64,000 nucleotides of DNA from a virus, in IMG/VR virus record IMGVR_UViG_3300042330_000875, positions 64,001 to 128,000 of that record. One strand, 5' to 3'. The notes below the pieces were generated by a model. The model had not been told where the DNA came from. It ran no database searches and worked only from the letters and a program-made list of their open reading frames with translations. Both the position numbers and the translations under genes were made by a program. Shown here one piece after another: positions 22,580 to 44,823 of the stretch (the stretch's first letter is position 1; the number at the start of each line of letters is the position of its first letter).

Positions 22580-24433
22580 ATGTCATCAAATAATTTTTCA
22601 TTGGAAGGTGTAGCCAGTAAAGTTCGCTTAGGCAAAGCTGGTCCACAATTAAAAAACAATAATGGTGTTATCGAAGTTAAAAACGTAGATGATACCACTT
22701 TAGCTAAATTATCAGTTGCAGATGGAACCAATCCATCAGAAGCAACAAATTTATCTCAATTAGAAAGCGCAATTGCAGATGTACCAGTTACTTTTACTGG
22801 TTTTGATTTTCGTTTAGGCGATATCGCAAACGGCGATGGTAGTTGGACACCAGGAGCGGTTCCAATTGATGAAAATACCAAAATAAGTGCAGCAATTGAT
22901 GGTTTAAATGAAGTTCTTTCATTGCTTGTTCCTGCACAACCGCCAGCTTTTCCAAATGCTCAAGCATTAACTTTAACTTCAGTTGGTACATCACCATTAC
23001 AAGCTGCTGGTGCGGTTCCAAACAATACAGGAACAACTTCTCCTTGGAGTGCTGGACAAGCAGTTACACGCTTAACTTCAAACGCAACTACTAACACATT
23101 TAATGATATGGGTCCAGGCAACTCAGGAACCGTTACACTTATTAATAATGGCGCATCTTCTGGTTCTCGTGTTTTAACTGGAACTGGCGATAATGGAACT
23201 TATGGTAATCTTGTAATAGCAGATCAAAAAGATTTTCCAGTTATTACGCCCGGTTTTTGGAAATCCATTGATATTTCTGGTAGTGGTATAGTTGGAACAC
23301 AAGGAACAAATCGTATTTCAATCAATCATTCGGCTGCTGGTTCAACAGGGGATGTTTTTTATATTAGAGACAATATAACAGCAACCCCAGTTGTTAGCTC
23401 AGTTGGTTTATCTCAATCAGGTTCTCCTACATTTGCCTATAGTTCAAGTGTGCCTCATTATGGTGATTCAACCGCAACTTTAACTGGTTCAGCAAGTGTT
23501 AACAATTTATCAGGTGAAACGTATTATGGCGGTTCAACCCCATTTACGGTTTCTGGCACAAATTCTATTATAGCATCACAAAGTTATACTTATGCAACTT
23601 TAGGTATTACTACACCAATTACTCGACAAACTGTTGCTGCTACTCCAATTACACCAGTTTCTATTTTAGTTAATGGAACAAACATTCATAATTCTGGTTT
23701 AATTCAAGCAGTTTCAACAAACGTAAATGGTTCAAGTGCTGCAACCAATTTAAGTTCTTCAATTGTGTTAGTAAAACGTGGAACAGTTGGCAGTAGAATT
23801 GATGAAATGAATATTCCAATTACTATTGCTGGAACAACCGGAGATTCAGTTGCACAAAGAATTTCTTCTAATTCAAATGCTGATACACCAAATTATACTT
23901 TTACTGGAACATCAACAGATTGGGTACAAAATGCAGCTTTAAGCACTTATGAAACAGCAGTAGTTGCTGGTTTATTATCTCATAACCAAACAAATTATTC
24001 AACTGGTCATTTACCAGTTGGGCCAAATTTAAGTGTTGGTCGAACAGGCGCACAATATATTACATTTTGGTTTAGACGTACACCAGTTAGTAAATTTGAT
24101 CTTCAATTAACAACAGGTGTTAGTGGTATTGGTGGTTGCTGGATTAAATTAGTAGGTCAAGAAACAACAAGTACATTAAATGGTTGGTTTGATATGAGTT
24201 TAGCTTATTCTGGTTCTGGTGCTCCTGGTGCTGGCGCTGGTGGTAATGGAAGTAATGGTTGTGCATTAGGTGGTGTTTTAGCTACTAGCACACAATATAC
24301 CAATGCAAGAAGAACTGTTACTTTTGGTACATTAAGTTCAGCAAGTGCAACCAACAATTCAATTTTAGTTAGATTTAAATTAACTTCTGGACAATCAATT
24401 CCAGCATTAAGCATTTTAGCGGCAAGTAATTAA
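22580..24433 (+). CDS. Virion structural protein (Ser/Thr/Gly-rich)
   Basis: Composition, late promoter, strong GAGGAG RBS. Confidence 0.7.
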   Translation: MSSNNFSLEGVASKVRLGKAGPQLKNNNGVIEVKNVDDTTLAKLSVADGTNPSEATNLSQLESAIADVPVTFTGFDFRLGDIANGDGSWTPGAVPIDENTKISAAIDGLNEVLSLLVPAQPPAFPNAQALTLTSVGTSPLQAAGAVPNNTGTTSPWSAGQAVTRLTSNATTNTFNDMGPGNSGTVTLINNGASSGSRVLTGTGDNGTYGNLVIADQKDFPVITPGFWKSIDISGSGIVGTQGTNRISINHSAAGSTGDVFYIRDNITATPVVSSVGLSQSGSPTFAYSSSVPHYGDSTATLTGSASVNNLSGETYYGGSTPFTVSGTNSIIASQSYTYATLGITTPITRQTVAATPITPVSILVNGTNIHNSGLIQAVSTNVNGSSAATNLSSSIVLVKRGTVGSRIDEMNIPITIAGTTGDSVAQRISSNSNADTPNYTFTGTSTDWVQNAALSTYETAVVAGLLSHNQTNYSTGHLPVGPNLSVGRTGAQYITFWFRRTPVSKFDLQLTTGVSGIGGCWIKLVGQETTSTLNGWFDMSLAYSGSGAPGAGAGGNGSNGCALGGVLATSTQYTNARRTVTFGTLSSASATNNSILVRFKLTSGQSIPALSILAASN

Positions 24434-24447
24434 TAGGAGAATAAAAA

Positions 24448-25506
24448 ATGGCTATTTCAGATACACAATTAATCGACCTATTAGTTAAAAAAGTTATTGG
24501 TGGCGTTGCTAAAACCGATACGGCAAGTGCAAAAAGTGTTAGCAATGAAACTATTGCTAGTCCTTTACCAGTTTATGCAAATCAAATTTGGGCTGAACCA
24601 GAAAATATTCCAAATACTCCACCAATTTCTAATACATCGGCAGTAAGTGTTCGCACGGTTGCCAATTCAAGTTCACAAATAAATTTAACAATGGACGCAA
24701 CATCAACAACCAATCGTACATTTTTAACTGGATTGGTTGATTGGATTTCTCCTACATTTGGAAGTAATTATGCGGTAAAGATTTATCGTGGAAATCCAGC
24801 ATTGGGCGGGGTTCAAATATTCCCAAATGGTTCTGGTAACTCTGATTCTTATATGTTTGATTATACTGCTGGTGTTTTAAATTTTGCTGATACAAATATT
24901 CCATCGGGCATAACATCAAGCAATGTTTGGATTGAAGGTTATCGATATATTGGAGCAAAAGGCGTAGCAAGTGCTGCTGGATCAACAAAAACATATATTG
25001 TTGCTAACATTGCTGCTAGAGATGCATTAACTGGATTAAAGGCTGGCGATGGTGCATTTGTGTTAGATGCAAGTGCCGATCCTCAAATAACAGATACAGG
25101 CGAATATGCAGAATATCGTTGGACTGGTTCTGCTTGGAAATTGATTTCAACTGAAGACGCAGTTAAAGTTGATGCTAGTTCAATTAAAATTACAGTTAAT
25201 TCTTCAACTACTGGGCCAATCGTTTTAGCAACTGCCGGAAATATTTATTCCACTTATAAAGTTTCAAGAATTATTGGAGCAGAAATTAAAGTTAATACTG
25301 TTTTTGATGGAAATAAATCTTTTAATGTTGGTACAGACGGTAATAATACTGCTGTTTTAACCGATACTGATTATGATTTAACACAAACTGGTAATTACGT
25401 TCGCAGCGGTGGTTTTGACTTCCCAAGTGGCAATACAGAAATTAAATTATTTACTTCTGGAAGTTCAACAGTAGGAAGCGCTACGATTTATTTGACTTAT
25501 GTTTAA
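24448..25506 (+). CDS. Virion structural protein
   Basis: FDYTAGVLNF, GYRYIG, VANIAARDAL motifs typical of jumbo-phage virion proteins. Confidence 0.7.
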   Translation: MAISDTQLIDLLVKKVIGGVAKTDTASAKSVSNETIASPLPVYANQIWAEPENIPNTPPISNTSAVSVRTVANSSSQINLTMDATSTTNRTFLTGLVDWISPTFGSNYAVKIYRGNPALGGVQIFPNGSGNSDSYMFDYTAGVLNFADTNIPSGITSSNVWIEGYRYIGAKGVASAAGSTKTYIVANIAARDALTGLKAGDGAFVLDASADPQITDTGEYAEYRWTGSAWKLISTEDAVKVDASSIKITVNSSTTGPIVLATAGNIYSTYKVSRIIGAEIKVNTVFDGNKSFNVGTDGNNTAVLTDTDYDLTQTGNYVRSGGFDFPSGNTEIKLFTSGSSTVGSATIYLTYV

Positions 25507-25514
25507 TAATTAAT

Positions 25515-25544
25515 AAAGGGGAGATTTAAATCTCCCCTTTTTTT
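25515..25544. terminator. Bidirectional terminator
   Basis: AAAGGGGAGATTT|AAATCTCCCCTTT. Confidence 0.8.
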
Positions 25545-25734
25545 AAAAGAAATTAGGAATGTTCATAATTCCATAACCAATTAAAAACAAAACAACGGAA
25601 ATAATAAAACAAAGTGTTTTTAAGCCACCAATTTTACGTTTATTTACCGTAACAGTACCAAATAAAGAAACAACTGCTAGGCCAATTGCAAAGGTGAAAA
25701 AGGGCGATGCAATAAGAATAAAAAGAAGTTCCAT
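25543..25734 (-). CDS. Small two-TM membrane protein
   Basis: AAGGAG RBS; promoter at 25810-25782. Confidence 0.7.
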   Translation of the reverse strand: MELLFILIASPFFTFAIGLAVVSLFGTVTVNKRKIGGLKTLCFIISVVLFLIGYGIMNIPNFF

Positions 25735-25777: not shown

Positions 25778-25833
25778 ACCCAATATAGAAAATTTTCTGA
25801 TCTTTGTCAAGCGCTTTTTTAAATTTAATTTTT
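25778..25833 (-). repeat. Promoter-cassette repeat copy 1, promoter-proximal half (interrupted by transposon)
   Basis: Matches 40212-40266 and 44692-44746; TTGACA-17-TATATT on minus strand. Confidence 0.85.
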
Positions 25834-25932
25834 CCGGTATTATGTAGCAAACGCCACTAACTTTCTCAGCAGAAGCCCGGCATTTTACAGTATATTGCAT
25901 ATCGAGATCAAAAATCAAAATTGGAATGAAAG

Positions 25933-26358
25933 ATGCCGTTCGCTGAAATTTTGAAACCGCTTCAGGAGAAGCACGCTGAATTAACGGCAGTTATAAAAAA
26001 TCTACAAATTCAGATTGATTTACATAAGGATAATTTACGACACTTAGAAGCGACGATGCGGTTATTCGATGGTAGCACACCCATTCTCACAAAGAAGGAA
26101 GAGAAGGCGAAGATTTTTTGGCATGGTGAATTATCACGCCTGATTATGGATGCGTTGCGCGGGAAGGAATCTGGTTTGAGTACGACAGATATAACGCATG
26201 CTGTTATGTTGACTAAAAATCTCGATTCGGAAGACAAGAATTTTGTGAAGGAGATAAAGGAGCAGGTAACGCGGTGTTTATCGCGTCAAAAGTCTATTGG
26301 GTTATTGAGTTCGAAAAAATCCGATGGGAAGGATTATATTTGGGATATTAAAGATTAA
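25933..26358 (+). CDS. Transposon passenger, coiled-coil plus winged-HTH-like protein
   Basis: N-terminal coiled coil, GLSTTDI..LSRQKSIG..YIW. Confidence 0.6.
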   Translation: MPFAEILKPLQEKHAELTAVIKNLQIQIDLHKDNLRHLEATMRLFDGSTPILTKKEEKAKIFWHGELSRLIMDALRGKESGLSTTDITHAVMLTKNLDSEDKNFVKEIKEQVTRCLSRQKSIGLLSSKKSDGKDYIWDIKD

Positions 26359-26394
26359 TATTATAAATATATATTAACATATTGGAGAATTTTT

Positions 26395-26625
26395 ATGGAA
26401 GATATTTTTAAAGATGCAGAAGTAGTGTATATGACTTCTGAGGAAATAAGAAATTTGAAAACCAATTTAGATGGTGTTTTGGAAAATATTAAAACCTTAA
26501 TTACGCCAGAATGGCTTGAAAATCATCCTCGCCAGATCGTGAACGGCAGAGAATATTATGATTTTAATAAAGAGGATTACGATTTATTAGGAATAAAATT
26601 AAGAACAATTATTTTGTCGTATTAA
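26395..26625 (+). CDS. Hypothetical passenger protein
   Basis: GGAG RBS. Confidence 0.5.
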   Translation: MEDIFKDAEVVYMTSEEIRNLKTNLDGVLENIKTLITPEWLENHPRQIVNGREYYDFNKEDYDLLGIKLRTIILSY

Positions 26626-26818
26626 TAATATTTTTTTCTACAAACTCTAGATAATCATCGTAATTACTGAATTCCAAATCACCAAGAAGCTTATTTCCGT
26701 CATTTTGAATTATTCTAGCCACTATATATGGGGTAGTTGTTGCCGAATTTAATTTATAAGCTGGAATGATAGTGACGTAATTATTCTTGAATGTATCTAG
26801 CGTAAATGATATTGACAT
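26609..26818 (-). CDS. Hypothetical passenger protein
   Basis: GAGG RBS. Confidence 0.5.
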   Translation of the reverse strand: MSISFTLDTFKNNYVTIIPAYKLNSATTTPYIVARIIQNDGNKLLGDLEFSNYDDYLEFVEKNIINTTK

Positions 26819-26891
26819 AATTCCTCACTCGCATTGATCCGGTAAATTTGGTACAACCAAATAGGCGCGCTTGCAACAGTTTTTCCCCTTT

Positions 26892-27869
26892 TTATTTTTG
26901 CTGATTACGTTGCCAATACCCGGAAAAATCAACCGAGGGGCGATTAACACAAACCAACCGAAGAACGCGGTCGAATTGAGCCACATTCCCGTCAGAACGA
27001 TGATCTTCACGAAAAGCCATCTCGCGCGCGTACCGATCAAGGTAAACGCCCGAAAGGTGATGATGATGCCCCAATTCAGCACGACGCAACCGCGAAAAGA
27101 AACTTTCAGCTTGATTCGTACATGCACCTTCAAAACTGTAAGCTTCGCTGTGATTGATCCGTTTCATGTCGAATTTGGCATGTAGATTATTCCAAGCCCG
27201 TGCTTCATCGGCATGAATTGTGGTTCCTTTTTCGACATTTTGTTTAATGAAATTTAGGCTTTGTTCTTCAGAAGCGAAAGTTTTGGTTTTCGTCTTGCCA
27301 TTGCGTTCGCGGATGACAACGACGCATTTGCGTTTGCCGGTTTGGTTTTCAGCCAAGCGCCGATCTTTGCGTTCGGTTTTGAGATTTTCAGGGCGCATGT
27401 GTCCGCCGAAGTAAGCCCCATCGATTTCAACCGTTTTATCGATACCGCCGATTTCGTTCTGATTGATTTCCGACGCCATCGCTTCGCGCAATTTATGCGT
27501 TAAGACGAAGGCCGTCTTATACTGAACATCCAGATCGCGGCTCAAAGCCAAAGCCGATTTGCCTTTGACTTCGTTGACGAAAATTGCAATAGCGGCAAGG
27601 TACATGTTCAAAGGGAGTTTATGCCAAGCGAACAAGGTGCCCGAAGTAAGGGTGAATTCTTTCCGGCAATCTTTGCAGCGCCAACGGCGCGTTCCTGATT
27701 TCCGGGGGCAGAAATAAAGCGTCAAGGAGCCGCAATCGGGGCAATGAGGCGTGCCATCGGCCCAACGGATTTTTTGAAAGGCATCGGCGCTTTCCTCGGC
27801 AGTCATGCGAAAAATTTTCGCCAGGGAAAGGCCGCGAGCATCTTTTGAAAGGAGAAAATGTTGTGTCAT
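26892..27869 (-). CDS. IS1595-family transposase
   Basis: Zn ribbon CPDC/CKDC, TSGTLF, VEIDGAYFGG, HADE, TNQAESFFSRLRR. Confidence 0.95.
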   Translation of the reverse strand: MTQHFLLSKDARGLSLAKIFRMTAEESADAFQKIRWADGTPHCPDCGSLTLYFCPRKSGTRRWRCKDCRKEFTLTSGTLFAWHKLPLNMYLAAIAIFVNEVKGKSALALSRDLDVQYKTAFVLTHKLREAMASEINQNEIGGIDKTVEIDGAYFGGHMRPENLKTERKDRRLAENQTGKRKCVVVIRERNGKTKTKTFASEEQSLNFIKQNVEKGTTIHADEARAWNNLHAKFDMKRINHSEAYSFEGACTNQAESFFSRLRRAELGHHHHLSGVYLDRYAREMAFREDHRSDGNVAQFDRVLRLVCVNRPSVDFSGYWQRNQQK

Positions 27870-27984
27870 TTCACGTATCCATTGTTTAACTAACGAATAC
27901 GTTATGTTTTTGAAATCGCCTTGTCAACAGAAAAGATAACGTATATGTTGTTTTTATAACTTTTATGTTTGGGGGAGTTGGGGA

Positions 27985-28212
27985 ATGAGTAAGGAAGTTT
28001 GGGAAGAACGAGCGAAGCGGTTTTTAAAGGCCGAATTGAAGCGGCAAGGCGTGACGTATGAGGATTTGGCACACCGATTAAGTGCGTTAGGCATTTCGGA
28101 AACTGAGGGATCGGTAGGGATGAAGATTTCTCGGGGCACTTACCCGGCTTGGTTTTTGTTTGCGGTTATGAGTGTGATTGGAATTAGTGTTTTAAGATTG
28201 GAAAATGAATAG
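27985..28212 (+). CDS. DUF6471-like HTH protein
   Basis: LKAELKRQGVTYEDLA..L..KISRG; divergent from the transposase. Confidence 0.75.
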   Translation: MSKEVWEERAKRFLKAELKRQGVTYEDLAHRLSALGISETEGSVGMKISRGTYPAWFLFAVMSVIGISVLRLENE

Positions 28213-28241
28213 GGGCTAATAGCCCCTATTTAAAATTGTTT

Positions 28242-28850
28242 TCACTTTATAAATTCTTGTTTAACAATAATCCATTCATCATCTCGCGGCATTGATCCAT
28301 CTATGTTACCAGAATACCTTATAATGGCACCAAATTTTTGTTTATACATTACCCCTTTATCCTCATACTCGAAATTGGATACAATTGAATATGTACAGTC
28401 TCCGTAAAAAGTCGCAGAAACATCATTAGTCGTGGGGTCGGCATAAATTTTCTTATTGCTTGGTAAGGGCACAAGCATTTTCCTTAGAGTAGTATAATAT
28501 GCATCCATAACGCTCCATCCATTTCCAGAACAATAATCTCTTTTTACGTTTTCGATTTTTGTTCTGCTATAGCTATCGTATATATTTTTCCTTCTTTCCA
28601 ATTCCCGCATAACTGCACTATCGTCTATGACATTATTTTGCTGTTGATTTTTCTCTTTCTCCTGTTTCTCTTTTTCTTTTTTCTCAAGCTCAATTTTTTC
28701 GGCTAAAATTTTACTCTGAGTTTCTTTTTCCTGCTGTACCTTTTTTTGTTCCTCGACCTTGACCTTTTCGGCTTTGTCCGATTCTTTATAAAGATAAATC
28801 ATAATCATAGCGACTATGACCAAAAACACATTTTTCAAGCTGAATTTCAT
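28242..28850 (-). CDS. Membrane-anchored hypothetical passenger protein
   Basis: N-terminal TM plus K/E/Q-rich stalk. Confidence 0.7.
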   Translation of the reverse strand: MKFSLKNVFLVIVAMIMIYLYKESDKAEKVKVEEQKKVQQEKETQSKILAEKIELEKKEKEKQEKEKNQQQNNVIDDSAVMRELERRKNIYDSYSRTKIENVKRDYCSGNGWSVMDAYYTTLRKMLVPLPSNKKIYADPTTNDVSATFYGDCTYSIVSNFEYEDKGVMYKQKFGAIIRYSGNIDGSMPRDDEWIIVKQEFIK

Positions 28851-28897
28851 AGTAAATTACTCCTGTGATTAGGATGTTGAAAGAGTTTTTCTAAATA

Positions 28898-30685
28898 TTA
28901 ACCGACATAATACGCCACTCCTTCATACTGGAAGTTACCAATCAATTTCACAGCATCGCGTTCAGAAACACTATCGGTATAAAAATGAGTTCCCGTTTTC
29001 GTGTTATAGAAACGGAATAACTCATGCGAACCTTCAATCTTGGTATCGCTTGCCATGTACGCCGTCCCTTCAAACTGGAACCCGGCTAATGCATTCACTG
29101 CATCGCGTTCTTTGGCATCGATTGTGTAGAAGTGGGTTCCGGTATTGGCATTGAAGAAGCGATAAACGGGATCATCGCCACCAGCTAAAGCCTTGAAGCC
29201 GACGCCTTCATAAAGGAACTGGTCGAGATTATTCAGAACGGTGTTTCGTTCGGTCTGGCTATTGGAATAGAAGTGCGTCCCTGTTTGGGTATTATAAAAC
29301 CGATAAATGTTCAATGGATCAGCCGAACCATTGAAAACTGATACATCCAATTTCAAATTATTGAATTGGACCGTTTCGACATTGGTTAATCGGTCGGTTC
29401 CGTCTTCGGATTTAACGATGACGGTTGACCCATCGATTTTTAAACGAACATTAGCGTTGTACGTAGCGTTGATAACAACCGTGTCGTTTCCGGCCCCAAG
29501 ATTGATTGTATCGCTGCCACGGCCACCAGAAACGCTATCGGCACCTGAAGAACCCGTAATCGTGTCGTTATTAAAGGAGCCGCTGTACGTGCCTGCAATG
29601 GTCTTTGTGAGGCCGTCTAGCTCACCATCGGTATAAGCAGTGCGAACAACGTTTTCTGCTTGTTTATCGATGACGGTCCAATCATTATTATTCCCATTGT
29701 TTTCGGCTGTAGAGGTATTTCTCCCATTCCAAACGGCAGTTCCCATAAATTTATCGCCTAATTCGCTACTCATGACCGAAAGAACAGCCTTATACCAATC
29801 AGCTTGTTCTTTTTGGTCCGAAGGGGCTAAGTTATAATCACTTGGTTCTTGCATCGTTCCAGAGCCGTCATAACTTTGAACGCCAATTTCAGTAAACATA
29901 ATTTTCTTACCGGTTGTTTCAGCAAGATTTTTTAGGTAATCAACCCAATTTACTTTTCTTGAGTTATCACCATATAAAGCGCGAACAAAATCATCATAAT
30001 TCGCGTTCTTACTGAGTGTTAATTGCGGATAAAAATCTACTCCGATGTAATCAAGTTTATCAAGCCACTTGATATTCGCCAATTCATTGGCTGGAACATA
30101 ATTAGGCTGAAAGCCCACAAATGCGGCATAGGTTAATTTGCCTGAATAAACTGAACGGATTTGTGAAATTAGGCTTTCCCAATATCCCTTTGTGTCGCCA
30201 GTTGTGAAATGAAGCATCTCATTCCCAATTGCAATGGCTTCAACTCCCTTTGATTGGCAAGCTTTCGCTAAATCAACCATATACGCGGTATATTGTTGAA
30301 AGAATGCAGCTTTATCACCAACATTTGAGTTGGTTGGTAAATTAAAATTTGTAAACTTATCCAGACCATTTTCTACATAGAAATCTACTACTTGTTGACG
30401 AATGGTAACAGCTAACCCTTGATTATGGAGATAATCGGCTTTGCTCATCAATTCATCAATGGTGTAACCGCCACGCACTGGAATCGTATTTTGGTAATAT
30501 GTTACTGCCAAAGGGTCAAAGTTATTCTTATCTTCTTCCCATTCAACGATGCTGCCAAGATAGGCGTGATTTGCCCCCATAGTTTTGTACTGATCGACAA
30601 TATAATTAAAATTAACTTCGCTATAGGTAATGTTTTTTGTTCCCATATATGTGAAGGCTTTTTGTTCGAAACGAGTGGTTTGCAT
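28898..30685 (-). CDS. Secreted GH113-like TIM-barrel glycoside hydrolase with RTX-type and DUF5648-like repeats
   Basis: IAIGNE, LDYIGVDFY, FTEIG; GGxGxD nonapeptides; 3x YRFYNxxTGTHFY repeats. Confidence 0.75.
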   Translation of the reverse strand: MQTTRFEQKAFTYMGTKNITYSEVNFNYIVDQYKTMGANHAYLGSIVEWEEDKNNFDPLAVTYYQNTIPVRGGYTIDELMSKADYLHNQGLAVTIRQQVVDFYVENGLDKFTNFNLPTNSNVGDKAAFFQQYTAYMVDLAKACQSKGVEAIAIGNEMLHFTTGDTKGYWESLISQIRSVYSGKLTYAAFVGFQPNYVPANELANIKWLDKLDYIGVDFYPQLTLSKNANYDDFVRALYGDNSRKVNWVDYLKNLAETTGKKIMFTEIGVQSYDGSGTMQEPSDYNLAPSDQKEQADWYKAVLSVMSSELGDKFMGTAVWNGRNTSTAENNGNNNDWTVIDKQAENVVRTAYTDGELDGLTKTIAGTYSGSFNNDTITGSSGADSVSGGRGSDTINLGAGNDTVVINATYNANVRLKIDGSTVIVKSEDGTDRLTNVETVQFNNLKLDVSVFNGSADPLNIYRFYNTQTGTHFYSNSQTERNTVLNNLDQFLYEGVGFKALAGGDDPVYRFFNANTGTHFYTIDAKERDAVNALAGFQFEGTAYMASDTKIEGSHELFRFYNTKTGTHFYTDSVSERDAVKLIGNFQYEGVAYYVG

Positions 30686-30808
30686 AACGGTAATCTCCTT
30701 CTGAAAAAAATAGCGTTACAGAAACTCAAAAGAATTTCTGTTTTTACCCAACTATTGATTTACGAAAAAAAGGTTTAGGCGCTTCTGAAACGCCTAAACC
30801 TTTTGGAT

Positions 30809-30961
30809 TTAAGCTTGGAAAGGTCCAGAAACAATCGAACCTTTGCCGTATTGCTGCTCAAGCATGGACCTTGCGTTTCCGGGATTACTCGCTTGGACGG
30901 TAACATCTTCATATGCCCCGTTCGGAAGCCTTACGCGCGCTTTATACGTCTTAGTTGACAT
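30809..30961 (-). CDS. Unannotated 50-aa passenger protein
   Basis: MSTKTYKARVRLPNGAYEDVTVQASNPGNARSMLEQQYGKGSIVSGPFQA; CAGGAG RBS; hairpin terminator near 30768-30804. Confidence 0.65.
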   Translation of the reverse strand: MSTKTYKARVRLPNGAYEDVTVQASNPGNARSMLEQQYGKGSIVSGPFQA

Positions 30962-31072
30962 TTTTCACTCCTGATTGACACCAAACCGCAGATCGAACCG
31001 CTTAACGGCTCAACCTTTTAATCTTTACTATAGTGAATGGTTTGAGGGCTGTAAAGTCCTCAGTGTGCCCGT

Positions 31073-31321
31073 ATGGACATTCGGGAACTGGTTGGATCAA
31101 ATCTTAAACGTTTGCGACTGGAGCGAGGCATAAGCCAAGAAACGCTTGCAGCAGAAGCAGGTATAGCCTCTAGCTTTCTCAGTCAGATCGAAAATGGAAA
31201 ACGCAGCGCAACCATAACAACGCTCGATATTTTGACTAAAACTCTTAATGTCAATATAATTGAATTATTCTCTGAACTCTCTGAAATCCCAAAGGGATTA
31301 CCAAGAGGTCGGCGAAAATAG
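31073..31321 (+). CDS. XRE-family HTH regulator
   Basis: NLKRLRLERGISQETLA..SQIENGKR. Confidence 0.9.
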   Translation: MDIRELVGSNLKRLRLERGISQETLAAEAGIASSFLSQIENGKRSATITTLDILTKTLNVNIIELFSELSEIPKGLPRGRRK

Positions 31322-31393
31322 CTACCCAAATCCTTTATCCTCAAACCTGCCAATCCCGTTAGACGACATATGTTAATATGTTTTGAGGAGGTT

Positions 31394-31600
31394 TCGGGCT
31401 TCTTATGAGAAGCCTTAGCGGTCGATGCTGCGATTGATCGGCTCTATGTGTATCGATTGGAACGGAATCAGGAAAACCCTACCGTTGCCCTCTTAGATCG
31501 ACTCGCAAATGCACTCGGTTGTGACACACGGGATTTTTTCGATGAACCCAATGGCGAATCGCTTCCCGCCCTCAAAAGCGGCAGAAAGAAAAAATCTTAA
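31394..31600 (+). pseudogene. Second XRE-family HTH, disrupted
   Basis: SGFL*EALAVDAAIDRLYVYRLERNQENPTVALLDRLANALG; in-frame TGA at 31406. Confidence 0.65.
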
Positions 31601-31801
31601 ATTTTTACCATTAAAAGTAATTAATGCCTATGCAATTTCGGCCATATGTGTAAACGCCCATCTTGCTTTGATATAACCGTGCTAAATTTAACAGACAATT
31701 TAATTCACTAACCTTCATCAAAATTTGAGCTTCAATTTGTAAAATGTCATTTTGCATTGTTCGGCCTTTCAATAAATTATGATTGTATTTATATTTGATG
31801 A

Positions 31802-32140
31802 ATGAAATTTTATTTCGATATTGACATACCTCTCAGAATTGATAATGCTTTTTTGGAGAGCCATAGATATAAAGAGATTTCAGAAATGGACGAAAATCAG
31901 AAAAAAATCCTTAATGAGTTAAAATTCTTTGAACATAAAAGAGAAGAATTAAAAAGAGATTTTGATAAAAAAGAATATTTTCATTTTGAGTATCGTTTCG
32001 TCTATGGAGATTTATCTTTTGTAATTCCAGTAGATTTTGCTAAAGAAAAGGAAATGACCCAAGAGGAATTAACTACTGAAGGGCTTGATGCTCTTAAACA
32101 ATTCGTCGTTTTGATCGCCAAAAAAGTCGTGGAAGGCTGA
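31802..32140 (+). CDS. Hypothetical passenger protein
   Basis: 112-aa ORF. Confidence 0.55.
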   Translation: MKFYFDIDIPLRIDNAFLESHRYKEISEMDENQKKILNELKFFEHKREELKRDFDKKEYFHFEYRFVYGDLSFVIPVDFAKEKEMTQEELTTEGLDALKQFVVLIAKKVVEG

Positions 32141-32314
32141 TTCCAAAACGATAGAGGAATTTCTCTATTTTCCCGGCACGAGGCATAGCACCATATTTTA
32201 TTAACCAAGGTGGATCAGATAAAAAGCTATCCAACCAACGCAAAAAATTTTCCCATAATTTATTGAAATACTTCATCATTTATAAATATATTTATACAAA
32301 ATGAGGGAAATAAA

Positions 32315-32545
32315 ATGAATAATACCGATAAAAGAGTTTTAGAGCTTTATGAGGAAGCAAAAAACGAAATTGAAAAAATAGTCATAAAACATGCTGAAAA
32401 AATTGTTTCATTCACAAAAGAAAATAACATTCCGAACACGGATCATGTCGTGTTTGGAACGAAATTGGGTTATGGTGATGATTTATCATTAACTGCTCAG
32501 CGATTATCGGCTTCTGTCATGTTTAAATCAATGAACCTAAATTAA
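32315..32545 (+). CDS. Hypothetical passenger protein
   Basis: GAGG RBS. Confidence 0.55.
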   Translation: MNNTDKRVLELYEEAKNEIEKIVIKHAEKIVSFTKENNIPNTDHVVFGTKLGYGDDLSLTAQRLSASVMFKSMNLN

Positions 32546-32877
32546 ACACATACTTTCATACCTTGAGTAGCATGAGCTAGTTCTGAAGCAAAATTAAAAA
32601 ATTTTTCTTCAGCTAATTTGTAAATATAATTTGGATTATTTATCGACTGGCCGTTCTGTTTTAATTCTTCGTCCGAGATAAAAATTTCTAATGTATTCGG
32701 AGGATTGTGAAGTGCGTTAGTAGTCAACGATACTGTAACTACTATCCCGCTATTTACGCGACGCTGACTCACAAAACATATCGTTGTTGCCATAACGCTA
32801 TCTCCATCTAAATCAACCCAATAACCGTAATTCGAGACGCGAAAATCTGTCAATGCAATCCTAAGAAGAAAATTCAA
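32542..32877 (-). CDS. Hypothetical passenger protein
   Basis: ORF; start uncertain. Confidence 0.45.
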   Translation of the reverse strand: MNFLLRIALTDFRVSNYGYWVDLDGDSVMATTICFVSQRRVNSGIVVTVSLTTNALHNPPNTLEIFISDEELKQNGQSINNPNYIYKLAEEKFFNFASELAHATQGMKVCV

Positions 32878-32951
32878 TTAAATAACGAAAATAATATGTT
32901 AATTGTAAAAATCTTATGTCTCGGTTGGTGGCGTTTGATACATAATACCGG

Positions 32952-33034
32952 AGTTTTGTTAAGTTGCAGTTGTACGAACTCTCTCAATATTTCCTTGTTT
33001 TCTGCGGCTCTCCATGAATAGAAAATTTATTAGA
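32952..33034 (-). repeat. Promoter-cassette repeat copy 1, distal half
   Basis: TTTTGTTAAGTTGCAGTTG..GAACTCTCTCAATATTTCCTTGTTTTCTGCGGCTCT matches the 40263 and 44743 copies. Confidence 0.85.
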
Positions 33035-33054: not shown

Positions 33055-33363
33055 TTATGTGTATTTTAACAGCATTTCAACTTGAAAGGCACTGTCTTGA
33101 TTTGGATGATTTAAAAGCCAATCATGAATACCATAATATTGAACATTTTTTATATAAAACCAATACGTTTCATCAGGATTAATAATTGATGGGCCATTTA
33201 GTCTATGTAATATTCTGCCTCTTTCACACCATCTTTTATATCCAGTTGATAAGATTTCAAGTGCGGGTGTATTTTCATTTGGTGAGGAAATTTTAAACAC
33301 AGGGATAATATAAGGAATTACGGTTGTGAATTTTTCACCATCAATATAATAAATATAACTCAT
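33055..33363 (-). CDS. HRLTGPA-family paralog copy 9 (tail B)
   Basis: Ends HPNQDSAFQVEMLLKYT. Confidence 0.9.
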   Translation of the reverse strand: MSYIYYIDGEKFTTVIPYIIPVFKISSPNENTPALEILSTGYKRWCERGRILHRLNGPSIINPDETYWFYIKNVQYYGIHDWLLNHPNQDSAFQVEMLLKYT

Positions 33364-40210: not shown

Positions 40211-40343
40211 ACCCAATATAGAAAATTTTCTGGTCTTTGTCAAGCGCTTTTTCAAATTTAATTTTTGTTAAGTTGCAGTTGTGTGAACTCTCTTAATTTT
40301 GTGAGGTTTTCTGCGGCTCTCCATGAATAGAAAATATATTAGA
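40211..40343 (-). repeat. Promoter-cassette repeat copy 2 (intact)
   Basis: ~135-bp similarity to 44691-44823 and to the split copy. Confidence 0.9.
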
Positions 40344-44690: not shown

Positions 44691-44823
44691 ACCCAATATA
44701 GAAAATTTTCTTGTCCTTGTCAATCACTTTTTCAAATTTAATTTTTGTTAAGTTGCAGTTGAGGGAACTCTCTCAATATTTCCTTGTTTTCTGCGGCTCT
44801 TCGTGAATAACAAATTTATTAGA
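44691..44823 (-). repeat. Promoter-cassette repeat copy 3 (intact)
   Basis: TTGACA-17-TATATT plus conserved ~100-bp upstream block. Confidence 0.9.

Follow-up and report, generated by a model that had tools for sequence, protein, structure and literature searches.

The window analysed here is a 64,000-nt stretch of an uncultured giant phage, covering bases 64001–128000 of the 146,077-bp IMG/VR record IMGVR_UViG_3300042330_000875. CheckV completeness of the record is 45%, which together with its length would place the full phage genome at ~300 kb or more. Among phage-like neighbours (helicase, ClpB-like ATPase, T4-type RNA ligase/tail-fibre attachment protein, thymidylate synthase), the window holds an element with a GC content of 39% (25835–32950), compared with 27.5% for the remaining sequence. 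Between its terminal inverted repeats lie an IS1595-family transposase gene and ~10 non-transposase open reading frames (ORFs), the main passenger being a glycoside hydrolase gene (Table 1). With high confidence, we read this element as a complete ISNha5-like transporter insertion sequence (IS) of the IS1595 family that left bacterial DNA and entered the phage genome as a single unit of 7116 bp.

An intact IS1595 transposase had been proposed at this locus by a sequence-only reading, and database searches bore this out. The stop-free 325-aa product matched Pfam DDE_Tnp_IS1595 essentially end to end (8.3e-42, profile positions 5–153 of 153), Zn_ribbon_IS1595 (8e-10, 39 bits, cut-off 25.4) and NCBIfam transpos_IS1595 (149.5 bits, cut-off 75). 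To our knowledge, the zinc ribbon is present in all IS1595 groups except IS1016. The closest named relatives were proteins of Azospirillum and Skermanella filed under 'IS1595 family transposase' without further classification. Since the ratio of non-synonymous to synonymous substitution rates (dN/dS) against four sister copies was only 0.06–0.09, the transposase appears to have been kept functional, a constraint suggested by sequence comparison for the lineage rather than for this copy in particular.

The sister copies belong to related elements in metagenome contigs (L006, L007, L015–L019 and L044), which have in common with the phage element the order of 141-aa gene, transposase and DUF6471 gene as well as 23-bp ends. 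These three genes form a conserved core found in the sisters wherever they are complete enough, and the passenger block varies. Homology of the 141-aa protein was traced by nucleotide or translated matches in L006, L015–L019 and L044; the protein is possibly a winged-helix DNA binder, which we offer as a lead only.

Within the passenger block, the hydrolase matched Pfam GH113 (5.7e-28), and its clan GH-A glutamate motifs GNEM and FTEIG aligned with the mannanase motifs. The domain and both motifs are shared with the GH113 endo-beta-1,4-mannanases of known structure (PDB 7dv7, 5ylh, 3civ), but the similarity is distant (E ~1e-8), and the phage enzyme has added RTX and DUF5648 modules. The full GH113-RTX-DUF5648 architecture is rare, with six clusters only among 5.8 billion proteins, and the enzyme probably leaves the cell either by export or at lysis. 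A palindrome in the interval separating the hydrolase gene from the divergently oriented regulator gene may act as an operator or a bidirectional terminator. Further to the right, the remnant of a second helix-turn-helix (HTH) gene marks a rearrangement seam within the cargo. A defence-system search of the family-less passengers gave nothing significant: apart from the HTH regulator, which is of a generic kind, there were two marginal matches at noise level (E ~0.008).

Table 1. Coordinates of the transporter insertion sequence, its genes and its target site within the window
Feature	Position	Strand	Basis or remark
Phage promoter of a repeated class, TTGACA-17-TATATT (11/12), intact, 24 bp from the transposon end	25782..25810	-	drives 63-aa gene 25543-25734(-)
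Left 8-bp flank AATTTTTC, target-duplication remnant	25827..25834		7/8 to consensus AATTTTTG
Whole transporter IS, 7116 bp, 39% GC	25835..32950	- (transposase strand)	terminal repeats, GC
Terminal inverted repeat on the 141-aa-gene side (IRL), CGGTATTATGTAGCAAACGCCAC	25835..25857	+	repeat comparison
141-aa protein	25933..26358	+	homologue by transposase 3' end in sisters reaching that side
76-aa ORF, no family match	26395..26625	+	called as gene in other assemblies
69-aa ORF overlapping the 76-aa ORF	26609..26818	-	called as gene in other assemblies
IS1595-family DDE transposase, 325 aa, N-terminal zinc ribbon, intact, no stops	26892..27869	-	Pfam, NCBIfam
DUF6471 protein, 75 aa, divergent from transposase gene	27985..28212	+	kept in sisters covering the position
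202-aa passenger, no significant family match	28242..28850	-	absent from L015-L018 and Elstera-like locus
GH113-RTX-DUF5648 glycoside hydrolase, 595 aa	28898..30685	-	GH113-like (clan GH-A) domain, RTX calcium-binding repeats, DUF5648 repeats
Near-perfect 18+18-nt palindrome between divergent hydrolase and regulator genes	30768..30804		folding free energy (dG) -14.9 kcal/mol, z -5.3
82-aa HTH_3 (Cro/C1-type) regulator, divergent from hydrolase gene	31073..31321	+	same layout in Elstera-like chromosomal cassette
5'-truncated second HTH gene remnant	31409..31600	+	intact (85 aa) in L016, L018
Three family-less passenger ORFs: 112 aa (+), 76 aa (+), 111 aa (-)	31802..32877		family searches
Terminal inverted repeat at the other end (IRR), CGGTATTATGTATCAAACGCCAC	32928..32950	-	repeat comparison, 22/23 vs IRL
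Right 8-bp flank GAGTTTTG, target-duplication remnant	32951..32958		6/8 to consensus AATTTTTG, 5/8 to left flank
Uninterrupted paralogous target copy	40254..40278	+	exact 25-mer match, alignment
Uninterrupted paralogous target copy	44734..44758	+	exact 25-mer match, alignment

The ends of ISNha5-group elements we take, from ISfinder, to read CGGnnTT, and their sizes presumably to span 3.4–7.9 kb, figures that we did not find in the searchable papers. PMC11891212, citing Siguier, Gagnevin and Chandler 2009, describes ISNha5 as a regulator-carrying transporter IS, and PMC8101967 gives the 8-bp duplication and the domains of the IS1595 family. The present element resembles that type in its zinc-ribbon and DDE_Tnp_IS1595 transposase, its CGGnnTT ends, its length of several kb and its small-regulator passengers; the 8-bp duplication is seen in its sister elements. 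It differs in residing in a giant phage rather than a bacterial chromosome, in carrying a GH113-RTX-DUF5648 glycosidase as main passenger, and in a duplication that is degenerate (5/8). We therefore call it ISNha5-like, an assignment set by ends, size and cargo; every IS1595-family feature tested was found, with the exception of a clean duplication.

Terminal repeats, target site and flanks

As the sequence-only reading had stated, the element ends in a pair of 23-bp inverted repeats beginning CGGTATT, whose arms stretch to 29 nt at 93% identity. No further copy of these repeats was detected in the window (≤3 mismatches) or in the 146-kb record (≤6 mismatches), with 0 expected by chance. The G/T asymmetry between the two ends recurs in the sister element L015, and an exact copy of IRR is present in the unrelated, 58% GC contig L044.

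Rejoining the sequences on either side of the element restores the 25-mer AAATTTAATTTTTGTTAAGTTGCAG, which is found exactly at 40254 and 44734 (chance expectation 0). The uninterrupted copies announced for these positions are thus real; they are paralogues of the repeat and not an allelic empty site, and the empty site claimed within the window has to be understood in this sense. When the flanks are aligned to these copies (~40.2 kb, ~44.7 kb), they overlap by exactly 8 columns, in agreement with the degenerate 8-bp target match suggested earlier. The consensus 8-mer is present in every other repeat copy of this phage, and a 28-mer containing it is exact in two related phage contigs. Across the two flanks, 3 of 16 bases deviate from the consensus, and all independent assemblies give identical flanks.

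Two complete sister elements define the ends of the lineage more sharply. L007 is 5940 bp long, with a transposase 71% identical to that of the phage element, and L015 is 8504 bp long, with one 95% identical. Each has CGG..TT termini bordered by a perfect direct repeat of 8 bp (GACTTGAT and TGACATCG, respectively), the termini of sister elements reading CGGTCTT, CGGCCTT and CGGCTTT. The perfect duplications around these two elements show that the lineage duplicates 8 bp and moves the entire cargo unit. They also led us to discard the alternative reading of 24-bp inverted repeats with a 6-bp duplication, because CGG forms the exact terminus of both elements.

If the element behaves like others of its family, its zinc-ribbon DDE transposase would bind both 23-bp terminal repeats, cut at the CGG termini and join the ends to target DNA cleaved with an 8-bp stagger, the repair of which would duplicate 8 bp. 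The target was an A/T-rich 8-mer at the seam of two modules of a repeated intergenic unit, 24 bp upstream of a -35 box.

Simple insertion followed by mutation of the split motif is not the only route to disagreeing flanks. Recombination between two IS copies residing in different repeats, or gene conversion after insertion, would fit the numerous and similar repeat cassettes of this phage, and the flanks agree at only 5 of 8 positions although the 8-mer is identical in all other copies of the phage and in the two related contigs. These two routes, however, call for about three changes each, as many as mutation in place of the split motif; moreover, there is a single IS copy in 146 kb, and the overlap of the flanks, of exactly 8 columns, falls at one and the same repeat position. 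We therefore consider recombination or conversion unlikely, although it is the strongest of the competing explanations, and retain a single insertion at this site.

The phage repeat is built of two modules, of which the left one holds a minus-strand promoter, and the transposon lies at their seam. The proposed insertion into a promoter repeat was hence correct as to the repeat, but the promoter itself is unbroken. It remains joined, together with its A/T tract, to the 63-aa gene, and the upstream gene at 33055–33363 is untouched. Because promoter and both genes are unbroken, the insertion is intergenic and probably near-neutral for the phage, which may also be why it was tolerated and apparently fixed.

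Promoters of this class have a characteristic AGAAAATTTTC spacer, and 8 copies are present in the window (8012, 25810(-), 37295(-), 40243(-), 44723(-), 49129, 51138 and 56319), with 0 inside the element. Between TTGACA and TATATT, the spacer ends in (A/C)A(A/G)AAAATTTC or -TTTTC. The repeat copy at 37.2 kb consists of the left module alone, followed by unrelated sequence. To the left of the transposon, phage genes at 22580–25506 (617 aa, phrog_8578; 352 aa, phrog_9417) have a GC content of 34–37%, compared with ~27% for the phage.

Sister elements, composition and a second hydrolase gene

Transposases of L006, L015, L018 and L019 were 94–97% identical to that of the phage element. The hydrolase is a passenger in three of five close sister lineages, namely L015–L017 (one study), L018 and the P0253 contig; L019 and L007 carry none. 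Hydrolase and HTH regulator are shared not only with sister elements but also with a chromosomal cassette at two loci from metagenome-assembled genomes (MAGs) resembling Elstera (L008 and L039), which lack transposase and terminal repeats. Passenger blocks otherwise differ between sisters, L015 for instance having an ApeA-like HEPN gene.

Two settings among the sister elements deserve separate mention. In L044 (L044:304–357; Ga0075522_10073266, 58% GC), two terminal repeats abut with their outer ends facing across an 8-bp spacer (…AATACCG GAAAATGC CGGTATT…), followed by a 141-aa-like gene and a ~65% identical transposase (partial match, contig end); this could represent tandem elements, or else a transposition intermediate in which two ends are joined. 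In L018 (L018:8680–8826), ~3 kb separate the element, which lies beside a 633-aa AAA_25 protein, from a transfer-messenger RNA (tmRNA) gene at its 3' end, a setting that looks like a genomic island at ssrA.

A second GH113-RTX-DUF5648 gene is located in the phage backbone outside the window (record 135062–136873; L002:1258–3072), with 69% protein identity to the IS-borne copy and both the GNEM and FTEIG motifs retained. In a maximum-likelihood tree, the IS-borne hydrolase clustered with the copy of L015 and the Elstera-like ones (support 97/99) and the backbone copy with P0251 (support 98/100); a DUF6071 gene adjoins the backbone hydrolase, and the same neighbour is found on the P0251 contig. 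GC content at third codon positions (GC3) was 0.394 for the IS-borne hydrolase, 0.388 for the Elstera-like copy and 0.245 for the backbone copy. These values mark the backbone copy as an old resident that has drifted to the composition of the phage, and the transposon as a newcomer; being compositionally un-adapted, the element is taken to be a recent arrival when measured on the time scale of the phage itself. We had also entertained a drift of the cargo towards phage composition and rejected it, given that the IS-borne hydrolase does not differ from the bacterial copies in GC3. The phage lineage took in the same rare hydrolase family on two occasions, a hint that it benefits from the enzyme.

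The same data could be turned around: the transposon lineage might be native to low-GC giant phages, with bacterial copies as spill-over, in which case it would hold no clue to origin. In all contexts the GC content of the element is 38–46%, below every bacterial flank (52–62%); the Elstera-like hydrolase island, too, has 41–44% GC in a ~56% GC contig region, and the phage lineage holds an older copy of the same hydrolase. At the same time, the element contains no phage-class promoter, its transposase GC3 of ~0.49 is far from phage composition, and wherever the flanks of a sister copy could be read, they were high in GC and held bacterial genes. Relatives are, moreover, nearly absent from deposited phages: only 2 of 50,697 records hold even a distant relative of the transposase, and a megablast search of deposited phages matched no part of the element. 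A phage-native lineage is accordingly quite improbable in our judgement, and a bacterial source remains the preferred reading.

The unit that moved could, in principle, be smaller. A short IS of ~2.5 kb (transposase and neighbours) might lie beside unrelated DNA with a stray terminal repeat, the glycosidase block not being cargo at all; in its favour, the passenger block is a mosaic (the 202-aa gene is absent from sisters and one HTH gene is truncated), and divergence from L015 is unequal, with a synonymous divergence (dS) of ~0.4 for the transposase vs ~0.9 for the hydrolase. Against it, there is no internal terminal-repeat copy, which also disposed of a composite element; the order of hydrolase, DUF6471 and transposase genes is kept in L016, L017 and L018; and in L015 (8.5 kb) the whole unit, including the same hydrolase, is enclosed by perfect 8-bp duplications. 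The short IS is thus very improbable, and the earlier description of the locus as a cargo transposon is supported.

Junctions in independent assemblies and the search for an empty site

The left junction was recovered in L012 (Logan SRR27423273), L026 (JGI 3300042352), L029 (JGI 3300042564) and L028 (JGI 3300043469), and the right junction in L020 (JGI 3300043469), L022 (ENA ERZ27272062), L023 (JGI 3300034013) and L024 (JGI 3300042564). These contigs, 99.7–100% identical to the window, come from at least 6 other samples or assemblies and from Logan, ENA MEGAHIT-style and JGI pipelines. Some contigs end at 25806–25825, within the multi-copy repeat, as is expected of short-read assemblies.

A misjoin at the repeat of a bacterial transposon contig to a phage contig, the danger named in the sequence-only reading, could draw on the multi-copy target and on the contig breaks at 25806–25825, but it is barely conceivable and was rejected at the contig level, both junctions having been assembled independently by different pipelines with flanks that overlap by the family's exact 8 bp.

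None of the junction contigs from other assemblies showed an empty site. Nor was an allelic one retrieved from viral contigs with a 37-mer specific to the right flank, which had no match; the consensus 28-mer matched distant relatives only (~70–75% identical), and the protein of the left neighbour gave no related viral loci. The insertion appears fixed in the sampled phage population.

Candidate donor and host, and what the insertion means

The hydrolase-regulator cassette shows 80.5% DNA identity (87% at the protein level) to a chromosomal locus of MAG GCA_043721315.1, whose EttA is 97% identical to that of Elstera sp. The closest chromosomal hydrolase copies (87% and 79% protein identity) come from two Elstera-like MAGs and share one chromosomal position, with a chemoreceptor gene on one side and ettA on the other. 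One of these loci (L008) keeps a 120-bp DUF6471 remnant, and no terminal-repeat remnants were found around either of them (L008, L039). The sequence-only reading had recommended looking for the element in candidate hosts; the cassette was found there in two MAGs, but no close transposase copy, the search for the latter covering one Elstera-like MAG. As separate observations, the Elstera-like cassettes (L008:9239–12723 and L039:4937–8064) form a 41–46% GC island in a contig region of ~56% GC (measured for L008), and ~60 bp of the left border of the L008 cassette is repeated at its right border.

Flanking DNA of the sister elements leads to the same order of bacteria as the Elstera-like MAG. The L007 flank is 74% identical over 1.36 kb to a genome of that order and has 28-bp repeats in common with it, and the end of the L018 flank, abutting the tmRNA 3' end, is 95–99% identical to five of its genomes. 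Transposases were found in 2 of 17 genomes of the order (58% and 46% identical). A blastn search of plasmids gave a sole match, of 66%, to Skermanella IS1595 genes. On this circumstantial evidence, the best candidate for the donor is to be sought among freshwater Alphaproteobacteria of the Elstera group.

Element and phage DNA can only have come together within a cell, and because the Elstera group is the candidate donor, it is also a candidate host: the findings weakly suggest Elstera-like Alphaproteobacteria as host of this phage. The TTGACA/TATATT promoter class is presumably read by a host sigma-70, which disfavours a Bacteroidota host. No tRNA genes, sought as an aid in placing the host, are present in the window.

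Several observations weigh against the transfer as we read it, or against its attribution to this donor. The 8-bp flanks agree at no more than 5 of 8 positions, in spite of intact terminal repeats and a cargo that looks recent in composition. Neither an allelic empty site nor polymorphism was seen that would place the insertion in time and space. Transposases of the best-matching species-representative genomes are 46–66% identical, the highest value (66%) being from a Rhodospirillaceae MAG, and the nearest donor copy has a dS of ~0.34 for the transposase and ~0.9 for the hydrolase, none closer having been found. Element and sisters have 38–46% GC in every context, even where bacterial copies are flanked by DNA of 52–62%, so that the composition of the element indicates no host. 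Finally, a 27% GC phage in hosts of ~56% GC would make an unusually large gap. The case for the host is circumstantial for these reasons, namely the want of a near-identical donor, the uniform GC content and the gap between phage and host; the host clue claimed by the sequence-only reading does point to Elstera-like Alphaproteobacteria, but with moderate force only.

Passenger-carrying IS1595 elements have already been described, and the present one is an additional example, in a giant phage. Insertion sequences are scarce in phage genomes, as the near absence of even distant transposase relatives from deposited phage records illustrates, and a whole 7-kb cargo transposon is for this reason a clear case of a phage gaining a ready-made bacterial gene cassette by transposition. 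The ApeA-like HEPN gene of L015 (L015:1386–2774; ApeA_NTD1 and HEPN_Apea), carried there as extra cargo, means that the transposon lineage also moves defence-type genes.

For an uncultured giant phage from a lake, the element has practical value as a host lead, and the double capture of a rare glycosidase family is a testable hint of a role in infection. A further-reaching idea, which we regard as doubtful, is that the transposon lineage shuttles a secreted glycanase between freshwater bacteria of the Elstera group and their giant phages, the phage lineage having captured this narrow gene family twice, once long ago and once recently on the transposon. If this were true, the enzyme would aid infection, perhaps through cleavage of the capsule or slime of the host, and this uncultured lake phage would for the first time be assigned to a host.

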